From Candidatus Omnitrophota bacterium (lineage in GTDB: Bacteria > Omnitrophota > Gorgyraeia > Gygaellales > Profunditerraquicolaceae), in assembly GCA_028716705.1 (NCBI GenBank), contig JAQUPI010000002.1:14067-78066 (forward strand): 64,000 bases of DNA. Direction: 5' to 3'. Numbering within the stretch: position 1 is the stretch's first letter; every line of letters starts with the position of its first letter. Below, one piece after another: positions 3,744 to 20,680 of this stretch. Below the pieces are notes generated by a model. That model saw only the letters and a program-made list of their open reading frames with translations, did no database searches and had not been told where the DNA came from. The position numbers and the translations under genes were made by a program.

Positions 3744-5092
3744 TTAATCGCCTGCATCATGCCTTTTGCCTTCACCAGCGTCTCCCGGTATTCTTCCTCC
3801 GGCTTAGAATCCGCGACAATGCCTCCCCCGACCCCAAAATACAGCTCTTTGTCTTTCTTTAATATAGTGCGGATTAAAATGTTTAAATCCATGCCTCCGG
3901 AAAAACTAAGGTAGCCGAGACTGCCTGTATAAATGGAGCGCCGGCGGGTCTCCAGTTCGTCGATAATCTCCATCGCGCGGATCTTGGGGCATCCAGTAAT
4001 GGAGCCTCCCGGGAAGCAGGCGCGGATCAGGTCAACCCTGTCCTGATTTTTATGCAGGCATCCGTAAACGGTAGCCGTGGTCTGAAAAACGGTGGAATAT
4101 TTTTCGAGCTGCCGCAGCCTGCTTACCTTTATGGAATCATAACTGCATACCCTGCCCAGGTCATTCCTCTCTAAATCCACGATCATCATCAACTCCGCCT
4201 TGTCCTTTGCGCTGGCAATTAGATCCTCCTTCAGCTTTATATCAAGGGCTTTATTCTTCGAACGGGGGCGCGTGCCTTTCATCGGCCGGGTCGTGACCCT
4301 GCCTCTCTCCAATCTTAAGAAAGCTTCCGGCGATGAGCTCAGGATCTGATAATCCCCGTAATCAATATAGGCGCCGAAACAGGAGGGGCTGAATTTTCTC
4401 AGCCGTTTATAGATCTGGGGCGCACTCAAGTCGGTTCGGGCACGAAATACCTGGGCGAGGTTTACTTGATAGATATCTCCTTTTTTGATGTACTCCTTTG
4501 CGCGCCTGACTGCCGCCATATATGCTTCTTTGGTGAAATTTGATTCCGCGGACGCGCCAACATTGACGGATTTATCTTTGAGGCTATTTTGGCTCGAGGC
4601 CGCCTCGCTAAGAAGCTTCTGTATTTTCCTGAAATTTCTCCGGCAGAGCGCTTTTTGCAGGCGATAATCTTTTTCAGGAAAGCCCGCGGCGAATATATAT
4701 AGCAGCTTTTTAAGATGGTCAATGGCGATCATGGTGTTATAAAATCCAAAAGAAAAATCGGGAACGGGGTTTTTGGGCCTTTGCCTGTTCTTAAATTTCT
4801 TTTCCAAGGCGAAACCCAGATCATAGGCTAAATGCCCGACTGCCCCTCCCAAAAAAGGAGGGGCGTTTCCGGTCAACGTAATTTTGTAGCGGTCTAAATT
4901 TTTTCTCAGTTCAGGCAAAGGGTCATCTCTCCCGGACTCTAAAACATAAAAAGGGTCCGCCCCCAGGAAAGAATACCGGCCCGGATAGAGGCTGCTATCC
5001 AGGAAAAAACACCGTTTTTGCCCTGCGAATGCGCCGAATATCCTCATCGGCTCCAAATTCAGTTTATATGATTTCAAAATGTAATATGCCAT
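3740..5092 (-). CDS. pabB: Aminodeoxychorismate (or anthranilate) synthase component I
   Basis: 450 aa chorismate-binding enzyme with the C-terminal GVGGGIVADSKPEEEYRETLVKA signature. Paired with the class-IV aminotransferase as pabB-pabC. The start may be the internal Met at ~5047. Confidence 0.7.
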   Translation of the reverse strand: MAYYILKSYKLNLEPMRIFGAFAGQKRCFFLDSSLYPGRYSFLGADPFYVLESGRDDPLPELRKNLDRYKITLTGNAPPFLGGAVGHLAYDLGFALEKKFKNRQRPKNPVPDFSFGFYNTMIAIDHLKKLLYIFAAGFPEKDYRLQKALCRRNFRKIQKLLSEAASSQNSLKDKSVNVGASAESNFTKEAYMAAVRRAKEYIKKGDIYQVNLAQVFRARTDLSAPQIYKRLRKFSPSCFGAYIDYGDYQILSSSPEAFLRLERGRVTTRPMKGTRPRSKNKALDIKLKEDLIASAKDKAELMMIVDLERNDLGRVCSYDSIKVSRLRQLEKYSTVFQTTATVYGCLHKNQDRVDLIRACFPGGSITGCPKIRAMEIIDELETRRRSIYTGSLGYLSFSGGMDLNILIRTILKKDKELYFGVGGGIVADSKPEEEYRETLVKAKGMMQAIK

Positions 5093-6788: not shown

Positions 6789-7281
6789 CGGGCGTCTCTA
6801 ATTCAATAATATCTAAAACATCCTCGTACGCCTGTATGATCTGGGGATTTTCCTTTAGGAGCTTGATTTGCGCGGGGGAGTTCAGGAAAGAGATCAAGGA
6901 TTCGGTATATTTTTTAAACTCCTCTTTTTTTAAGTTTTCGGTTACATAGGGACAGTTTAGATCCAGCGTCAAGACGACCCTTCCCTTCCTTAAATTGATC
7001 AGGAATGGGTAAAGCCGGCATTCGAAGGGACGGAAATCATAGATCTTGCATCTATTGTCTTCAGCCCTAAGAAACGGGCAGATAAAACCTTCTTCCGCCG
7101 GATCGGGTATGGGCATTAACTTCTTATTTGCGGATATGCAGGCTGGAGGGATCTTCTTATCCAGCAGATCCTGGATCTCCTCTTCTAAGAGGCACGGAGA
7201 CCACGCGGAGTCCAATTTTTTAAACCGGCAGCATCCGCGGCATTTAAGGCAAAACTCTTGTGGAATAATCTGCGCGATCAT
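6778..7281 (-). CDS. YkgJ-family Zn/Fe-chelating protein (CxxCxxCC)
   Basis: 167 aa with N-terminal CLKCRGCCRF and further Cys clusters, matching UPF0153/YkgJ. Confidence 0.6.
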   Translation of the reverse strand: MIAQIIPQEFCLKCRGCCRFKKLDSAWSPCLLEEEIQDLLDKKIPPACISANKKLMPIPDPAEEGFICPFLRAEDNRCKIYDFRPFECRLYPFLINLRKGRVVLTLDLNCPYVTENLKKEEFKKYTESLISFLNSPAQIKLLKENPQIIQAYEDVLDIIELETPDGA

Positions 7282-7598
7282 TTGACAACGCTTCCCAATT
7301 TTACTTCCCTGGCCGGGCTTACGATAACAATTCCGGTTTCATCGGAAGCCGCCAGAAGCATCCCCTGGCTTTCCACTCCGCGCAATACCGCCGGATCCAG
7401 ATTATCTACTACGACCACCTGCTTGCCGATGAGTTCTTCTTTCTGATAAGAACCCCTTATACCGGCGACGATCTGTTTTGTCTTATCGCCCAGATCCACG
7501 ATAATTACATAAAGCCGGTCAGCGTTCGGATGCTCCTGGACTTCCTTTATCTTAGCGACCTTTAACTCTATTTTCCTGAAATCTTCGATGCTCGCCAT
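7278..7598 (-). CDS. csaA: tRNA-binding protein CsaA/Trbp111 (EMAP-like OB fold)
   Basis: The ORF-track protein contains KIELKVAKIKEVQEHPNADRLYV and GMLLA motifs. Start re-assigned to ATG 7598 (Met13), which is preceded by AAGGAG-N5. Confidence 0.7.
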   Translation of the reverse strand: MASIEDFRKIELKVAKIKEVQEHPNADRLYVIIVDLGDKTKQIVAGIRGSYQKEELIGKQVVVVDNLDPAVLRGVESQGMLLAASDETGIVIVSPAREVKLGSVVK

Positions 7599-7603
7599 AC
7601 TAT

Positions 7604-7657
7604 CTCCTTGCGCAGAAAGCGCACACCAAACCATCCGATAAAATTGGGTGTTATCCG
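7604..7657 (-). promoter_or_regulatory. Conserved intercistronic 5'-leader element, copy A: two hairpins plus an SD
   Basis: About 94% identical to 19821..19874. The RNA sense is UAG-ACGGAUAACACCCAAUUUUAUCGGAUGGUUUGGUGUGCGCUUUCUGCGCAAGGAG-N5-AUG. It exactly fills the gap between the OMP stop and the csaA start. Confidence 0.6.
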
Positions 7658-7658
7658 T

Positions 7659-9173
7659 CTAAAAAATGAATTCAACCGATGTTTCGATCATATAAGCCGG
7701 GTCCGCCTTGCCGTCACCGCGCACAAAAGGGGAAAATAGGCTTCCCGCGGCATCTTCCCTGAATTCTTTATAGTATTTCCCGGGGATGAAATAACCTCCA
7801 GAAATTTCGAGCAGCGTATTTTTATTCAGCTTGTATACCGCTGTTATATCCATTTCATGGCCCAGTTCCCTGGATAAATACCGTGCCTGCCCGTCAAGCG
7901 TACCCACACCTTTCTCTAGGGATTGCAAATAGAAATAATCAAAGCTCAGATCCAGCTTTGGGGTAACTTCCAAGTCAAACCCCGGAGCGAGAATGATCAG
8001 ATTGTCGAAATCCGAGGCGGCAAAAGTTTCCGGCCGCGGGATTCCGTAAACCAATGAGTAACAGCTCCCCATGAAAACCAAGGGGCGGATCTCGCAATGC
8101 CAGCTGCCGATAGAATCGTCTAAATTAAAGTTCAAGGGGGAGTAATAGCTGAACGCGCGGTTCTTTCCGCTCGCTGAAAGCGTATCCCCGTTTTGCGCCG
8201 CGTCCAGCGAAACCTTGTTCCCGGAAGCCAAAAGGAATTTAAAGAACGGTTCTAGCTTTCCGAAGGCGTAACTTGTATCGGTATAAAGCATATAACCGGC
8301 GTGGTATATATCTTTAAAATCGCCGCTTTCGCTTTTGCCTTTGCCGAAGTTCCGCGCTGTCTCGGCGGTAAAAGATAATTTATCCCCCTTTAAGCTGAAG
8401 GCAAGACCCAATGTCCCCAAGATATCCCTTTTAATCGGAGCGCTGAATACGCTGTCCCTCTTTCCGCTGGAAGTGTAATCGGTCAGCGCCCCTATATAAG
8501 GATTCAGGTAATTATCTTCCCACTCGTATTTAATATCCGCGGCGAAGAAATTGGCGGCATTATGCTCATAACGATAATCCTGCTCTTCGTCTTGGCGGAT
8601 GCGCGGGCCCAGGCGTACCTTATAAAATGAATCCGGGCGGGCGTAATATAAGCGCAGCATGGAATTCTGGAATTTTTTGTAGAGCGTGGCTCCGTAATTC
8701 TCGTAGGCGCCGCTTAAGCTCAGGCCTTCTCCAACTTCGTAAGCGTAAAGCCCGAGTTTAATGCCTAAATTATTCCTTAGGGGAACGTCGACCCAGAATT
8801 CCTCTATATTTGGAAGCAATTCATCATTACGGTATTCTTCGACTACGCCGCCTGAGGTCATCAGCGTATTGTGTGCGAATAGAGGGGCGTTGTAATCTCC
8901 CGGCCCGTTCCTTTCCAGTTTAAAAAAATATGTCGGCCCCGCGGTTTTAGGTTCGACTAACGCGCTCAGACTGTAATCTATGCCCAGATAGGTAGTTGTA
9001 TCGTCGCTATTGGCGCTATCCAAATCTACGGTATTTTTAAACGAGATAACGTCAGTCCTGGAATAAACTCCCAGGTCAACGGTAAAATTCTCCGTTTCAA
9101 ATAAGGGCGCGCCGAAGCAAGCTCCCCTTAAAAGGAAAAATAATAAAAAAAATAACGATGATTTATTTGACAT
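7659..9173 (-). CDS. Outer-membrane beta-barrel protein (putative porin/export channel)
   Basis: 504 aa with an N-terminal signal peptide (FFLLFFLLRGACFGA), alternating amphipathic strands and a C-terminal aromatic ...VEFIF. Confidence 0.5.
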   Translation of the reverse strand: MSNKSSLFFLLFFLLRGACFGAPLFETENFTVDLGVYSRTDVISFKNTVDLDSANSDDTTTYLGIDYSLSALVEPKTAGPTYFFKLERNGPGDYNAPLFAHNTLMTSGGVVEEYRNDELLPNIEEFWVDVPLRNNLGIKLGLYAYEVGEGLSLSGAYENYGATLYKKFQNSMLRLYYARPDSFYKVRLGPRIRQDEEQDYRYEHNAANFFAADIKYEWEDNYLNPYIGALTDYTSSGKRDSVFSAPIKRDILGTLGLAFSLKGDKLSFTAETARNFGKGKSESGDFKDIYHAGYMLYTDTSYAFGKLEPFFKFLLASGNKVSLDAAQNGDTLSASGKNRAFSYYSPLNFNLDDSIGSWHCEIRPLVFMGSCYSLVYGIPRPETFAASDFDNLIILAPGFDLEVTPKLDLSFDYFYLQSLEKGVGTLDGQARYLSRELGHEMDITAVYKLNKNTLLEISGGYFIPGKYYKEFREDAAGSLFSPFVRGDGKADPAYMIETSVEFIF

Positions 9174-9229: not shown

Positions 9230-9305
9230 CGGGGTCGACGAGATTTGAACTCGCGTTCTTCGCCGTGACAGGGCGACGTGTTAGACCAGGCTACACCACG
9301 ACCCC
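9230..9305 (-). tRNA. tRNA-Asp (GTC)
   Basis: Reverse complement GGGGTCGTGGTGTAGCCTGGTCTAACACGTCGCCCTGTCACGGCGAAGAACGCGAGTTCAAATCTCGTCGACCCCG folds as a cloverleaf. Anticodon loop CTGTCAC. No CCA encoded. Confidence 0.9.
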
Positions 9306-9372
9306 AAAACAATTGGAGTTAAATTTTAACTTAAAAAGGCGATAATTACAATAAATTTCTACGAAAAGATAC

Positions 9373-9449
9373 TGGTGGGCGGTAGAGGAATCGGACCCCT
9401 GACCTTCTCTGTGTAAGAGAGACGTTCTAACCAGCTGAACTAACCGCCC
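9373..9449 (-). tRNA. tRNA-Val (TAC)
   Basis: Reverse complement GGGCGGTTAGTTCAGCTGGTTAGAACGTCTCTCTTACACAGAGAAGGTCAGGGGTCCGATTCCTCTACCGCCCACCA. Anticodon loop CTTACAC. CCA is encoded. Confidence 0.9.
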
Positions 9450-17212: not shown

Positions 17213-18139
17213 TTATGATTTTAAAGTACCGACCAGCTCCTTAATGTCTCTGAGCTTATTGCGCGCTAAATACTTCTTTAACCCGGAGATTATTTCGACG
17301 GATAAGGCAGGATTTATGAAATTCGCCGTGCCCGTGCTTATCGCGCTTGCTCCCGCGATAAAAAATTCCAGCGCGCTTGGGGTATCCATTATACCACCCA
17401 TTCCGATGATAGGAATTTTAATCTTCCGGGATACTTCCCAGATCATTCTTACCGCTACCGGCCTGATCGCCGGGCCGCTTAAACCGGCAATTACACTGGC
17501 GATCCTTGGCCTTTTCGTGTCAGTGTCTATGCTCGTGCCCGTAAGGGTATTGATCAAAGAGACGGCGTCGCTGCCCGCCTTTTCAGCCGCCGCGGCGATT
17601 TCGGTTATATCCGTAACGTTTGGGGAAAGTTTGGTGATGAGGGTCTTGCCGGTAACTTCGCGTACCATTTTAACCACTTTAAAGGTAGAGCCGGGATCCT
17701 GAGAGATCAGGCTGGTTTTTCCCCGGATATTCGGACAAGAAATATTCAATTCAATTGCCGCGGCTCCATTTATTTTGTCAAGCCGCTTTGCCAGACTGAT
17801 AAATTCATCCGGGTCGCCTTCCGAAGCGATGCTTACAATTACCGGTGCCCCTATTTTCTTTAAAATGGGCAGTTTCTTGCTGATAAAAGCGTCCACTCCG
17901 GGGTTCTCTAGCCCGATGGAATTAAGCATCCCGGCGGGAGTTTCGCAGGTGCGCGGCGGCGGATTACCCTGCCTCGGCTTTAAAGTTATGGTTTTTGTGA
18001 CTACCGCCCCCAGTTGCTTTAAATTCATAAAATCAGCGAATTCCTCGGCATAGCCAAACGTCCCCGAAGCGACCATCACCGGGTTCTTTAGCTTGAGCTT
18101 GCCTATATTAACCGCTAGCCTGGCTTCTTTTTTACGCAT
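17213..18139 (-). CDS. pyrD: Dihydroorotate dehydrogenase catalytic subunit (class 1B)
   Basis: 308 aa with NPVMVASGTFGY and GGIMDTPSALEFFIAGASA motifs. Confidence 0.85.
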   Translation of the reverse strand: MRKKEARLAVNIGKLKLKNPVMVASGTFGYAEEFADFMNLKQLGAVVTKTITLKPRQGNPPPRTCETPAGMLNSIGLENPGVDAFISKKLPILKKIGAPVIVSIASEGDPDEFISLAKRLDKINGAAAIELNISCPNIRGKTSLISQDPGSTFKVVKMVREVTGKTLITKLSPNVTDITEIAAAAEKAGSDAVSLINTLTGTSIDTDTKRPRIASVIAGLSGPAIRPVAVRMIWEVSRKIKIPIIGMGGIMDTPSALEFFIAGASAISTGTANFINPALSVEIISGLKKYLARNKLRDIKELVGTLKS

Positions 18140-18142
18140 AAT

Positions 18143-18688
18143 TTATTTGAAAAATACCACCCCTATAACACCCGAAACCAAAAAAGCCAAAATAGGATGA
18201 ATTTTAAAGATCCAAACCGCCACGACCACAAAAGCTGCGACAAGCACGGACCTGAAGTCCGCTATACTGACCTTGCTTATGCTTAAAACTGCGACGATAA
18301 TCAAGCCTAGAACGGCGGGGCGCAGGCCCTTAAAGGCGGCCTGAACTATTTGATTTTCTTGAAAAGAGAAGAACACAGAAGCGATCACCCACATAATTAA
18401 AAATGAAGGCGTAACAACCCCGAGCGTGCTGGCGACCGCCCCCCATAATTTGGCTACTTTATACCCCACAAACGTGGCACAATTGATCGCTATCGGCCCG
18501 GGTGTCATCTCGGCGACGGCAAAAAGGTCCGCGAACTGCTCGAGGGTCAACCAGTGTTGTTTATCCACTATCTCTTTCTCGATCACCGGGATCATCGCGT
18601 ATCCGCCGCCAAAGGTAAACAGCCCCACCTTGAAGAACTCCCAGAAAAGATTAAGAATGATCATTTTTAAAAGCTCGGCTCCACGCAA
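18143..18688 (-). CDS. chrA: Chromate transporter ChrA-like, half-size
   Basis: 181 aa membrane protein with GLFTFGGGYAMIP and EMTPGPIAIN, matching the CHR family. Confidence 0.6.
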   Translation of the reverse strand: MRGAELLKMIILNLFWEFFKVGLFTFGGGYAMIPVIEKEIVDKQHWLTLEQFADLFAVAEMTPGPIAINCATFVGYKVAKLWGAVASTLGVVTPSFLIMWVIASVFFSFQENQIVQAAFKGLRPAVLGLIIVAVLSISKVSIADFRSVLVAAFVVVAVWIFKIHPILAFLVSGVIGVVFFK

Positions 18689-19818
18689 AAGATCCTATAT
18701 TTTTTCAGATCCTTCAACCCCCCCTGGATAAAACTCAAATTTGTCAGGTATTTCATCTTGCACCAGGTGAAGATTTTGCTCTTCGGCTCCATGTAGAAAT
18801 TCCACTTTACGTATTGGTAAGAAAAATGCGCTGTCAGCGCCGCGAATATCGCCATGAGCACCTTCATCCACAGGCCGCCTATGGCGAAATTTAAAATTAT
18901 CGACAGGATAAAAAGCAGGGCGCATAAGTGCGTGAGGTGGAAGTTGCCGACGTATACAAACCCTCTTATCGGCAGAGGAAATAAAAACGATGGATTGCCC
19001 TTTAGAAATTGAAATATTATCTCGATGCCCTTTTTCTCGACATACTTGTCGATCAAGGGCAAGTGCGCTTGGCCGTAAGTTACCCAGACTTTTCTCAGGG
19101 ACCTGAGGTCAGCCCTGTGCATATGGTCCACTTTTGCTTCTGGAGCGAAATAAAAATTCCAGCCGCGGCTTCTGTGCTGGTAACTTAGATCCATATCTTC
19201 GCCGGTCGGCCTTTCCCAGAATTTCGCCCCTATCTGCGTCATCGCGCTTTTACGGTAAGCCACGTTGCAGGTGCCGAAAAAATACGCTTTGTGTCCGCCG
19301 ATATCGGAAGGCAGGGGCTTCCGGGGAAACCCCGGATAATAACCTTCTTTTATGAACCCGTAACGCGGGGAAACCATGTTAAATCTAAAGTGCTGGCACC
19401 AGGCTTCAACCAGATTATCGGGATCGACCTTCAAGGTAAAGACTTCGCCGCCCACTGCCGCGATCTTCGGGTCCCGCTCAAAGTGTTTAAGCATCTCTTT
19501 TATCCAGTTTTCGGAAGGGGCGCAATCCGCGTCGGTAAAAAACAGAAAATCCCCTTTGGTGCTTGCAAGGGCCTTATTCCGCGCGAACCCCGGCGAGGGA
19601 CAATTAGGTATTTCAACCAGTTTAATGAAAGGGTATTTTCGCTGCCAGCTTTTAATGATCTCGATAGTCCTGTCCGCGGAGCCTCCGTCTGCGATCACCC
19701 ATTCCCAGCGTTCCCGGGGATAATCCACTTTCAGAAGGTAATCAAAGGTTTTTTCAATGGTACGTTCGAAATTCTTCACCGGGATGATAATGGAGACGAA
19801 GGGTAAATTGGACATCAT
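18667..19818 (-). CDS. Family-2 glycosyltransferase with a C-terminal membrane domain
   Basis: VSIIIPVKN plus DAD and DxD motifs. Start re-assigned to MMSNLPF (ATG ~19818), preceded by AAGGAGGAG. Confidence 0.7.
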   Translation of the reverse strand: MMSNLPFVSIIIPVKNFERTIEKTFDYLLKVDYPRERWEWVIADGGSADRTIEIIKSWQRKYPFIKLVEIPNCPSPGFARNKALASTKGDFLFFTDADCAPSENWIKEMLKHFERDPKIAAVGGEVFTLKVDPDNLVEAWCQHFRFNMVSPRYGFIKEGYYPGFPRKPLPSDIGGHKAYFFGTCNVAYRKSAMTQIGAKFWERPTGEDMDLSYQHRSRGWNFYFAPEAKVDHMHRADLRSLRKVWVTYGQAHLPLIDKYVEKKGIEIIFQFLKGNPSFLFPLPIRGFVYVGNFHLTHLCALLFILSIILNFAIGGLWMKVLMAIFAALTAHFSYQYVKWNFYMEPKSKIFTWCKMKYLTNLSFIQGGLKDLKKYRIFCVEPSF

Positions 19819-19820
19819 TC

Positions 19821-19874
19821 TCCTCCTTGCGCAGAAAGCGCACACCAATCCATCCGATAGGATTGGGTGTTGCG
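19821..19874 (-). promoter_or_regulatory. Conserved intercistronic 5'-leader element, copy B
   Basis: RNA sense is UAG-AACGCAACACCCAAUCCUAUCGGAUGGAUUGGUGUGCGCUUUCUGCGCAAGGAGGAG-A-AUGAUG. It fills the pyrK-stop to GT2-start gap. Base differences from copy A preserve the first hairpin. Confidence 0.6.
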
Positions 19875-19876
19875 TT

Positions 19877-20680
19877 CTAACCCCAGATTATCTCGTTCGC
19901 CCTGAACACAGGGCCTTCTTTACAAACCCTCTCAAAACCTTTTTTTGTATTTACCACGCACCCCAGACAGGCGCCGATCCCGCACGCCATATGCTCTTCA
20001 AGCGACGCCTGGGCGGGCGCGTTGTATTTTTCAGAGATCCGGCTGATTTCTTTTAACATCAGCCGGGGGCCGCAGGCGTAAATAACGATTGGCGGGCGGC
20101 GCCCGGTGTTTAATCCGCGTTCAAGCAGCCCGCTGACATATCCTTTAAATCCTCTCGAGCCGTCGTCGGTTGCGATTTTTACATCGCACCCTAAATTTTT
20201 AAATTCTTTTTCGCAAAGAATCGAACTTGCTGTTTTTGCCCCGATCAAGACTTCAGTCCTTAATTTCGGGCTTGAAGCTCGTAGCCCCCGCAATCTTTGC
20301 GCCAGGAAAAGAAGCGGAGCAACGCCCATGCCGCCGGCCACGATAACCGGTGAACTGCTCGCGCGGCTCCCGGAAAAAGCCCCAAGGTCAAAACCGTTAC
20401 CCAGCGGCCCGATCAGATCCAGGTATTCGCCGGCCTTACGCTGGGATAAGATCTCGGTCCCCCTACCAACTACTTCATACAGCACCTCCATATCGGATCC
20501 TTTTACCTTATGTATCCCGAACGGCCGGCGCAGCAGGGGCTCATTGGGCCCGTTGACTTTAACGCTTATGAATTGCCCTGGAAGACACTTACCGGATATA
20601 CGCGGCGCGCGCAGGGTTAAATGAAAGAAATTCCCGGTGATGTTTTTATTATAAATCAGCTTTGCCCTTATTTGAAGCAT
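19877..20680 (-). CDS. pyrK: Dihydroorotate dehydrogenase electron-transfer subunit
   Basis: 267 aa FAD/NAD-binding protein with a C-terminal 2Fe-2S cluster (CGIGACLGC). Confidence 0.85.
   Translation of the reverse strand: MLQIRAKLIYNKNITGNFFHLTLRAPRISGKCLPGQFISVKVNGPNEPLLRRPFGIHKVKGSDMEVLYEVVGRGTEILSQRKAGEYLDLIGPLGNGFDLGAFSGSRASSSPVIVAGGMGVAPLLFLAQRLRGLRASSPKLRTEVLIGAKTASSILCEKEFKNLGCDVKIATDDGSRGFKGYVSGLLERGLNTGRRPPIVIYACGPRLMLKEISRISEKYNAPAQASLEEHMACGIGACLGCVVNTKKGFERVCKEGPVFRANEIIWG

Follow-up and report, generated by a model that had tools for sequence, protein, structure and literature searches.

The window analyzed in this study is a 64,000-nt stretch of the Candidatus Omnitrophota contig JAQUPI010000002.1, in which two copies of a short double-hairpin element, referred to here as copy A and copy B, occupy intercistronic gaps on the minus strand. 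Copy A lies between the gene for a 504-aa outer-membrane protein (OMP; Alginate_exp-like, 7659..9173, minus strand) and the gene for a 106-aa tRNA_bind (CsaA-like) protein (7278..7598, minus strand). Copy B lies between the gene for a PyrK-like electron-transfer subunit of dihydroorotate dehydrogenase B (19877..20680, minus strand) and a GT2 glycosyltransferase gene (18667..19818, minus strand), the latter being a conserved Omnitrophota gene found at 75-81% identity in many metagenome-assembled genomes (MAGs). Both copies are solo members of a repeat family whose unit measures 42 nt, or 44 nt with its TA linker. On balance, the results moderately favor the reading that this family is a lineage-specific, probably mobile double-hairpin repeat of Candidatus Omnitrophota that inserts at the junction between a stop codon and a Shine-Dalgarno (SD) sequence and is either harmless or of modest post-transcriptional effect in operon transcripts.

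Anatomy of the window copies

The original prediction had described two minus-strand copies of about 54 nt with approximately 94% identity. The identity was reproduced (46/49 positions, 94%); the outer limits were not, as the 5-6 nt on the 5' side (to 7657 and 19874) are not conserved (CGGAT vs. AACGC), leaving a shared block of 49 nt at 7604-7652 and 19823-19871. This block is the only substantial repeat within the 64-kb window and was matched in none of 100 dinucleotide-preserving shuffles of the window. Additionally, a covariance model of the family (CM R1, described below), run with filters off, returned copies A and B as its only matches in the window.

The 42-nt unit of copy A (7610..7651, minus strand; CM R1 match of 59.3 bits, E=1.6e-13) comprises a first hairpin at 7651-7623 (ACACC-C-AAUUU / UAUCGGAU / GGUUU-GGUGU) and a second hairpin at 7622-7610 (GCGC-UUUCU-GCGC), both on the minus strand. 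Its 5' side is bordered by the dinucleotide TA (7652..7653, minus strand), the family-typical 5' junction that also acts as the linker in tandem arrays, and its 3' end is flush with the SD sequence AAGGAG (7604..7609, minus strand), which is followed by ATAGT and the start codon ATG at 7598. The upstream stop codon TAG (7661-7659, minus strand) precedes a spacer, ACGGA, and then the TA at 7653-7652. Copy B (19829..19870, minus strand; CM R1 match of 68.1 bits, E=8.6e-16) is built in the same way, with hairpin 1 at 19870-19842 (minus strand; ACACC-C-AAUCC / UAUCGGAU / GGAUU-GGUGU) and hairpin 2, as read from the sequence, at 19841-19829 (minus strand). Its 3' end is flush with AAGGAGG (19822..19828, minus strand), followed by AGA and ATG at 19818, and its upstream stop TAG (19879-19877, minus strand) is followed by AACGCA and then the unit. 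The earlier description of two hairpins, the second abutting AAGGAG, in an element that fills the gap from stop codon to SD therefore agrees with the anatomy of both copies. An ortholog of copy B in a near-identical strain (L023 6312-6353; related loci are designated here by L numbers) is identical at 40/42 positions.

In both window copies, the hairpin 1 loop is 8 nt long (UAUCGGAU) and the 5' arm carries a bulged C. The proposal that the differences between the copies keep pairing held in part: the upper stem of copy B pairs perfectly (AAUCC/GGAUU), whereas that of copy A contains two U.G wobbles and one U.U mismatch, or adopts a shifted register, such that the changes are only partly compensatory. 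Sense-strand folding energies of the single sequences were also ordinary relative to shuffles (z = -0.12 and -1.78 for the two copies). Therefore, structure or function is not provable from the two window copies alone; it is the wider family that proves the structure. On neither strand does a promoter-like or terminator-like site coincide with a window copy; promoter or terminator function of the units was accordingly rejected, and the units are most likely co-transcribed with their operons.

Orthologous junctions with and without the unit

Genes are tightly packed in this genome, where called genes overlap or lie at most 15 nt apart, except where tRNA genes occupy the gap; at 60 nt, the gap at copy A is an outlier. 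In the relatives L003 and L004, which share the same gene order, the OMP-csaA gap is 14-15 nt and contains no unit, with the empty junction reading TAA AGGAGG ... ATG. The empty pyrK-GT2 junction in L046 and L047 reads TGG TAA AAGGAGG CGGACA ATG within a gap of 13-14 nt; the empty versions of both window sites are hence of the form TAA(A)AGGAGG. A third filled/empty case was provided by an SRPBCC gene, which is preceded by a unit in L012, L016, and L038 and by none in L044 and L045. Where the unit is present at this site, its own TAA forms the upstream stop; where it is missing, L044 reads GAT TAG AGAGGTGG and L045 has an unrelated spacer. Every named homolog of the proteins flanking the window copies belongs to Candidatus Omnitrophota, and the window contig is also present in the ENA assembly ERZ27247363.

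The 5' sides of the window copies differ from the relatives by more than the unit. Both unit-bearing upstream genes end in TAG within the motif TTAGA(A)CG (window 7652-7667 and 19871-19882) and carry 1-2 extra C-terminal codons (2 residues in the case of the OMP), whereas relatives without the unit have a TAA stop at both sites. Either about 10 nt of additional inserted sequence lie 5' of the unit, or the likeness is due to chance; the common extension is too short to tell the two apart.

The order pyrK-GT2-small transporter-pyrD-pyrF is kept in L046, L047, and L048, of which L046 and L047 lack the unit; copy B is thus no sign that a cassette was acquired recently. In the window (17213-20680) as in these three loci, pyrK and pyrD are separated by the conserved GT2 gene and a small membrane transporter gene. 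The transporter slot holds a Chromate_transp protein of 181 aa in the window vs. a TauE protein of 119 aa in the relatives, indicating that the slot has been exchanged. As a separate observation, the pyrK-GT2 junction in L048 (9831-10000), which derives from another Omnitrophota member in the same ENA sample, contains an unrelated 150-nt insert with the hairpin GTCCCGCC...GGCGGGAT and the CCTGCC palindrome, and this junction may be an insertion hotspot. Two tRNA genes were noted at 9230-9449 of the window, between a V-type ATPase c-subunit gene and the OMP gene, on the same strand as the copy A operon.

Structure and distribution of the repeat family

When one genome per GTDB species was screened with a 20-mer taken from the element, five matches emerged, of which two were chance occurrences in coding sequence and three were genuine (one Omnitrophota MAG and two MAGs labeled Planctomycetales). 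A further pattern, in which the stem base and hairpin 2 alone were specified and the interior was free, was applied to metagenome contigs of the Joint Genome Institute (JGI) and yielded 34 loci with 30 distinct units, nearly all of exactly 42 nt. Because 20-24 bases had to match exactly in both scans, the results understate both the diverged sub-families and the actual copy numbers. The covariance model built from the JGI units found 83 matches in related loci, corresponding to more than 80 units in approximately 35 Omnitrophota loci. The original prediction's call for a search of relatives is thus answered by a multi-copy family rather than a trivial local duplication. The family is patchy and of low copy number, and no units occurred in about 134 kb of other Omnitrophota loci. 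A search of viral contigs gave no match to the unit, and carriage by phages or viruses was rejected on that ground.

The aligned units share a modular layout consisting of ACACC, a bulged C, a 5-bp upper stem, an 8-nt loop (UAWNKGAU), the complementary arm, GGUGU, and then GCGC-UUUCU-GCGC. The stem base ACACC/GGUGU is conserved, the bulged C is invariant, and the upper stem covaries freely. In this upper stem, which had been left free in the search, all five pairs change on both sides, 99% of the alignment cells are paired, and none of 500 shuffles reached the observed covariation. Across 64 distinct sequences, double-sided changes were seen in 10 of the 14 pairs, spread over all three helices, with 97.6% of cells paired. 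Hairpin 2 also occurs with the stem variants GCCC/GGGC, GGCC/GGCC, and GCGU/ACGC while retaining the loop YUUCU. The earlier argument for pairing under selection, for which covariation in hairpin 1 had been proposed as a check, is therefore borne out at the family level.

No Rfam 15 family matched the unit, either in the window at gathering scores or in five array-bearing loci at E<=5. The Rfam search of the window returned tRNAs only, and the significant matches in related loci were limited to the flavin mononucleotide (FMN) riboswitches that host units. Likewise, no description of this family was found in the literature on Omnitrophota repeat elements or SD-associated interspersed repeats. 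The repeat is previously uncatalogued and is filed with the small interspersed hairpin repeats as a new family.

Placement at stop/SD junctions

Outside riboswitches, approximately 21 independent sites carry units in the sense orientation relative to the downstream gene and one site (L041) carries an antisense copy. Among 19 junctions, AAGGAG follows the unit at offset zero in 17 and AGGGAG in the other two, with the start codon at +10 to +13. By comparison, AAGGAG precedes only 18 of 139 background genes called from unit-free Omnitrophota loci (Fisher p=2e-11). The longer motif TA(A)AAGGAG occurs in only 8 of these 139 genes, yet both window sites show it in their empty versions. Directly 5' of the unit, the dinucleotide is mostly TA (T at position -2 in 13/19 and A at position -1 in 15/19). 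The upstream stop can adjoin the unit (0 nt) or lie more than 100 nt away, whereas the spacing to the SD is constant. That the two downstream genes in the window are unrelated, as initially noted, extends to the whole family, in which the downstream housekeeping genes encode P-II, SRPBCC, glutaredoxin, MTAP, a PilT-like ATPase, a nuclease, PanD, RibH, PurE, a TrpB-like enzyme, PhoU, L34, CsaA, and GT2 proteins.

An element that brings its own SD was considered and rejected, as the 5' flanks hold no consistent SD-like remnant and the empty sites already carry AAGGAGG; both observations favor the SD as the target rather than the cargo.

Units occur either alone or in head-to-tail arrays of 2-5 with a period of 44 nt and a linker of TA, AA, or A (e.g., L037 4232-4446, L034 6090-6348, and L030 1742-1871). 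Decayed and truncated units adjoin intact ones and are common in arrays. Nesting was also observed: in L037 (4364-4446), a complete diverged unit is embedded in a second, identically oriented unit, within the loop of its hairpin 1, and L005 4538-4602 is probably nested as well. Identical 42-mers are found upstream of different genes in the pairs L010/L031, L033/L035, and L013/L016.

Several further observations concern individual loci. The composite array at L014 2053-2235 is the only one with alternating orientation (-+-+); it combines the standard unit with a diverged sub-type (ACGCC...GGCGU with GGCC-UUUCU-GGC) and then a terminator-like hairpin, and a sub-threshold NsiR1 match (28.3 bits vs. 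39) lies at L014 2237-2290. On the minus strand of L018 (886-960), a complete unit precedes a second, truncated one, and the loop of the latter (TAAGGAG) doubles as the SD for a PheA-like gene. There is also a likeness between the stop/SD junction TAAAGGAGG and the consensus of the hairpin 1 loop, TAAAGGAT. In one Omnitrophota MAG (L005 4493-4650, and L040), a unit is situated upstream of rpmH in the dnaA-rpmH intergenic region, which is likely the origin region, and further short repeats, AATTGCGCGGGTGTT, lie nearby. A second repeat, a 20-nt perfect palindrome (CCTGCCTGCCGGCAGGCAGG, pattern CCTGCCNNCCGGNNGGCAGG), was seen in leader or intergenic regions beside double-hairpin units (L009 684-703, L024 411-430, L048 9892-9911, L027 1837-1856, and L032 5241-5260, with a similar sequence at L005 ~4617-4640); it was not found in the window.

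Units inside FMN riboswitches

The second setting of the family is the FMN riboswitch (RF00050), in which 1-4 units occupy the variable P3 loop and 1-2 units the P6 loop, nearly always antisense to the riboswitch; one flipped copy was found at L043 12543-12583. Unit-bearing riboswitches are located at L006 6596-6764, L009 226-456, L030 958-1212, L043 12435-12860, and L020 754-988, and the number of units differs between orthologous riboswitches. The aptamers are lengthened by 40-170 nt, and in L009 the Rfam score is lowered to 55.9 bits, under the gathering score of 66.2. FMN riboswitches thus tolerate insertions of this size in two peripheral loops, which is relevant to riboswitch annotation. 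Riboswitch loops reading TTTA|AACC would be secondary targets of the unit, or simply the one other kind of DNA in a compact genome that tolerates it. Small repeats inserting into riboswitch leaders have a precedent in the pneumococcal BOX element, one copy of which forms a composite structure with T-box riboswitches (PMC3049150).

Behavior of the unit in RNA

In 19 loci, the SD was predicted to be unpaired with a probability of 0.53 when the native unit was present and 0.54 after its deletion, whereas inserts shuffled at constant composition gave 0.43 (p=0.005). By this prediction, the unit folds on itself and leaves the ribosome-binding site (RBS) open, which accounts for its being tolerated at a stop/SD junction and counts against an SD-sequestering switch. 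Sequestration of the SD by the anti-SD-like CUUUCU loop, as in a riboregulator or an RNA thermometer of the fourU or ROSE type, found no support in these partition-function values: copy B could form an alternative CUUUCU:AGGAGG pairing, but across the 19 loci the SD is as accessible with the unit as with none and more so than with shuffled inserts. A kissing interaction of the hairpin 1 loop with the hairpin 2 loop was rejected for want of covariation, given that loop 2 never changes and loop 1 has GGA in some units and UGA in others.

Interpretation and competing explanations

Combined, the presence/absence pattern at orthologous junctions, the arrays, the nesting, the occurrence of both orientations, and the identical 42-mers before different genes indicate spread at the DNA level. 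Insertion into an asymmetric target of the type TA|AAGGAG is the simplest account of the fixed orientation, the zero-offset AAGGAG, and the empty sites reading TAAAGGAGG. Under the proposed mechanism, insertion would be directed, in one orientation, to such stop/SD junctions and could be driven either by a trans-acting enzyme or by microhomology-driven copying between junctions; arrays would then lengthen by slippage of the 44-nt unit. Such copying, if based on microhomology at the stop codon and the SD, would produce an identical pattern and would fit the untidy 5' junctions in the window. There, the units would be co-transcribed as structured intercistronic spacers of the OMP-csaA and pyrK-GT2 operons. 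A self-folding unit would keep the RBS as accessible as it was before insertion and would hence be tolerated exactly at this position. Any benefit to the host would be secondary, possibly through end-protecting hairpins after mRNA processing or the uncoupling of neighboring cistrons.

Several results weigh against this interpretation. Mobility is inferred solely from presence/absence and copy patterns. No mobilizing enzyme was found, with a tblastn search using an IS200 TnpA query giving nothing below E=0.29 in 432 kb of DNA, and the unit has neither terminal inverted repeats nor a clear target duplication (its ends read ACACCC... and ...GCGC, and the flanking dinucleotides are TA at the 5' end and AA at the 3' end). 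The window 5' junctions are unclean: compared with the relatives, they contain additional nucleotides and a new TAG stop, and the upstream genes have gained 1-2 codons. Copy number per genome also appears low, with the 20-mer detecting one locus per GTDB genome and the ~134 kb of other loci containing none. Furthermore, G.U vs. A.C mismatches track the transcribed strand (16:7 outside riboswitches and 4:9 inside, p=0.038), which implies that pairing matters in RNA and not in DNA alone. Finally, the orthologous units in L012 and L016 are identical at 41/42 positions vs. 53% identity at adjoining third codon positions, although 24 of the 42 positions were fixed by the search pattern. Such identity is a hint of constraint or gene conversion and not of a parasite in decay; gene conversion or repeated insertion at one target would equally produce it.

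The last two results keep a role at the RNA level open and also support a domesticated RNA module, in which the host would keep the unit for a function beside the SD and DNA-level spread would serve only as the source of new copies. Candidate functions are a pair of hairpins protecting the 5' and 3' ends after intercistronic cleavage, an insulator that uncouples cistrons, and helix stacking on the SD:anti-SD duplex. The strict sense orientation with zero-offset SD contact would fit such a module, as would the conservation of unpaired features (the bulged C, and the hairpin 2 loop YUUCU, which stays constant while its stem covaries) and the greater accessibility of the SD with native units than with shuffled inserts. 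However, at all three filled/empty sites relatives do without the unit, only a few genes per genome are served and these are unrelated, and predicted accessibility is no better than without any insert. The antisense copies in riboswitches and at L041 and the many decayed units in arrays also speak against it, and an asymmetric target explains the orientation bias equally well; we therefore regard domestication as possible yet rather unlikely.

A further explanation is that the element is an operator for a global RNA-binding regulator, either of the CsrA/RsmA type, as put forward in the original prediction, or of another kind, which would bind the GGA in the hairpin 1 loop together with the GGA of the SD and repress a regulon, with arrays raising the affinity. 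Both window copies do carry the loop GGA, as do 52 of the 83 units, and the SD GGA lies about 29 nt downstream, a spacing that a CsrA dimer can bridge. Arrays of GGA hairpins additionally resemble CsrB/RsmZ-type decoys, one array region has a far sub-threshold RsmY match (15.9 bits vs. a gathering score of 57, E=4.6), and some Omnitrophota are flagellated lineages, in which CsrA is common; the phylum is listed among the clades with the flagellar protein FlgV (PMC11607428). Nevertheless, the loop GGA is not conserved family-wide: 31 of the 83 units (37%) carry UGA, GGG, or another sequence instead, and in the arrays before panD (L037) and a trpB-like gene (L028) and in L033 and L035 all units lack it. 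Conservation is highest in the stem base, the bulged C, and the hairpin 2 loop rather than in GGA, and the second GGA, which is present through the flush AAGGAG in 17/19 junctions, is not discriminating as any SD would satisfy it. The unit is, moreover, a recent insertion missing from orthologous leaders, it precedes unrelated genes, and it also occurs antisense in FMN riboswitch loops and at L041. No csrA gene was detected by a motif search of the window or by tblastn of the 432 kb of DNA, which is a weak negative. The CsrA architecture is consequently an improbable explanation. Less probable again is a sense/antisense RNA network tying the translation of housekeeping genes to flavin status, in which the antisense P3/P6 copies would be freed as short RNAs upon FMN-terminated transcription and would pair with the SD-flush sense copies, starting by kissing of the loops AGAAA/UUUCU and proceeding into the invariant 18-24-nt core. 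In a milder version of this proposal, the family would be the first small mobile element shown to home specifically to stop/SD junctions.

The original prediction had also offered the footprint of a small mobile cassette, and of this suggestion the small mobile element is what lies closest to the evidence. The cassette itself, i.e., an attC-like boundary that brought the GT2 and transporter genes between pyrK and pyrD, would draw on the fact that pyrK and pyrD are usually adjacent and that a GT2 and a chromate-transporter gene separate them here, with copy B at the pyrK/GT2 boundary. It is refuted by the gene order conserved in relatives without the unit and is highly improbable: GT2 is a core gene conserved across many Omnitrophota, the unit has no RYYYAAC/GTTRRRY core sites, and copy A lies at no cassette boundary. 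Chance similarity or a one-off local duplication, for which the presence of only two copies in the 64-kb window might speak, is refuted by the shuffles and by the occurrence of the family in loci from many samples, and can be given next to no credence.

For annotation of the window, both elements should be labeled as repeat units and not as a regulatory leader. Small hairpin repeats such as REP, BOX, MIRU, and RPE are well known, while their mode of movement and the reason they are tolerated remain largely unsolved. The present family offers three clean features in this regard, namely its fixed orientation, the zero-offset AAGGAG with empty sites reading TAAAGGAGG, and a modular structure with an invariant stem base, bulged C, and hairpin 2 loop next to a freely covarying upper stem. 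These features form the signature expected of a recognition site for a dedicated enzyme or RNA-binding factor, which makes the family a tractable handle on the mobilization mechanism in an uncultured phylum. Additionally, the unit is a natural structured spacer that leaves the RBS open and could serve as an intercistronic insulator.

Comparison with known repeat systems

Among the closest parallels are mycobacterial interspersed repetitive units (MIRUs), which the Delihas review (PMC3184786, citing Supply et al. 1997) portrays as direct tandem units of 40-100 bp that are intergenic in operons and oriented with transcription, with ends touching flanking stop/start signals, filled/empty polymorphism, and internal GC-rich inverted repeats. 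The present units are similar in their 44-nt array period, their 1-5 units per site, their intercistronic position, and their sense orientation at ~21/22 non-riboswitch sites. They differ in that MIRUs carry short open reading frames (ORFs) overlapping their neighbors, whereas here the 44-nt period is not divisible by 3 and the units are not spanned by any ORF, even though the unit's TAA can act as the upstream stop in L016. There is also no sequence similarity, the phylum is another, and the 3' end flush with AAGGAG, the covarying upper stem, and the riboswitch-loop copies have no counterpart in MIRUs.

BOX elements, together with RUP and SPRITE, resemble the family in being modular, tandemly variable, RNA-structured, co-transcribed, confined to a narrow lineage, and mobilized at a low rate. 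In BOX, boxB is a tandemly variable sub-unit of ~45 nt. However, BOX consists of A, B, and C modules with no fixed relation to the SD, while the present unit consists of one module, strictly oriented and in contact with the SD at offset zero.

REP, BIME, and REPIN sequences, which are mobilized by RAYT transposases, are short (21-65 bp), GC-rich extragenic stem-loops, often intercistronic, and REPs act as mRNA stabilizers (PMC3184786). Unlike these, the present unit starts with (TA)ACACCC and has no GTAG-type 5' tetranucleotide, and its arrays are head-to-tail, with inverted pairs absent except for the alternation in L014. Its copy number is low and it lies 5' of the SD in sense orientation, whereas REPs lie 3' of genes; no RAYT (Y1 HUH transposase) gene was seen with the IS200 TnpA query in the 432 kb searched. 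The family is further distinguished from miniature inverted-repeat transposable elements (MITEs) by the absence of terminal inverted repeats and target-site duplications, and from integron attC sites by the absence of their core sites. With CsrA/RsmA leaders and CsrB-type decoys, it shares GGA in hairpin loops and in the SD and arrays of such hairpins, but it departs from them in the missing GGA of more than a third of the units (37%), in being insertion-polymorphic and orientation-variable, and in serving no coherent regulon.

Tiny elements of one or two hairpins that spread in compact genomes are also represented by mitochondrial double-hairpin elements (DHE) and Rickettsia palindromic elements (RPE). 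The repetitive hairpin-forming elements (RHEs) of sponge mitochondria similarly spread and lodge where a hairpin is tolerated, including in structural RNA genes (PMC2800124). These organelle and Rickettsia elements differ from the present family in host and sequence, and none is reported to home to SD junctions. Taken together, the family fails the defining features of REP/REPIN, MITE, attC, and MIRU (the last through the lack of a spanning ORF) and has no Rfam model; it is set apart by its homing to stop/SD junctions, its strict orientation, its modular conservation, and its copies within riboswitch loops.

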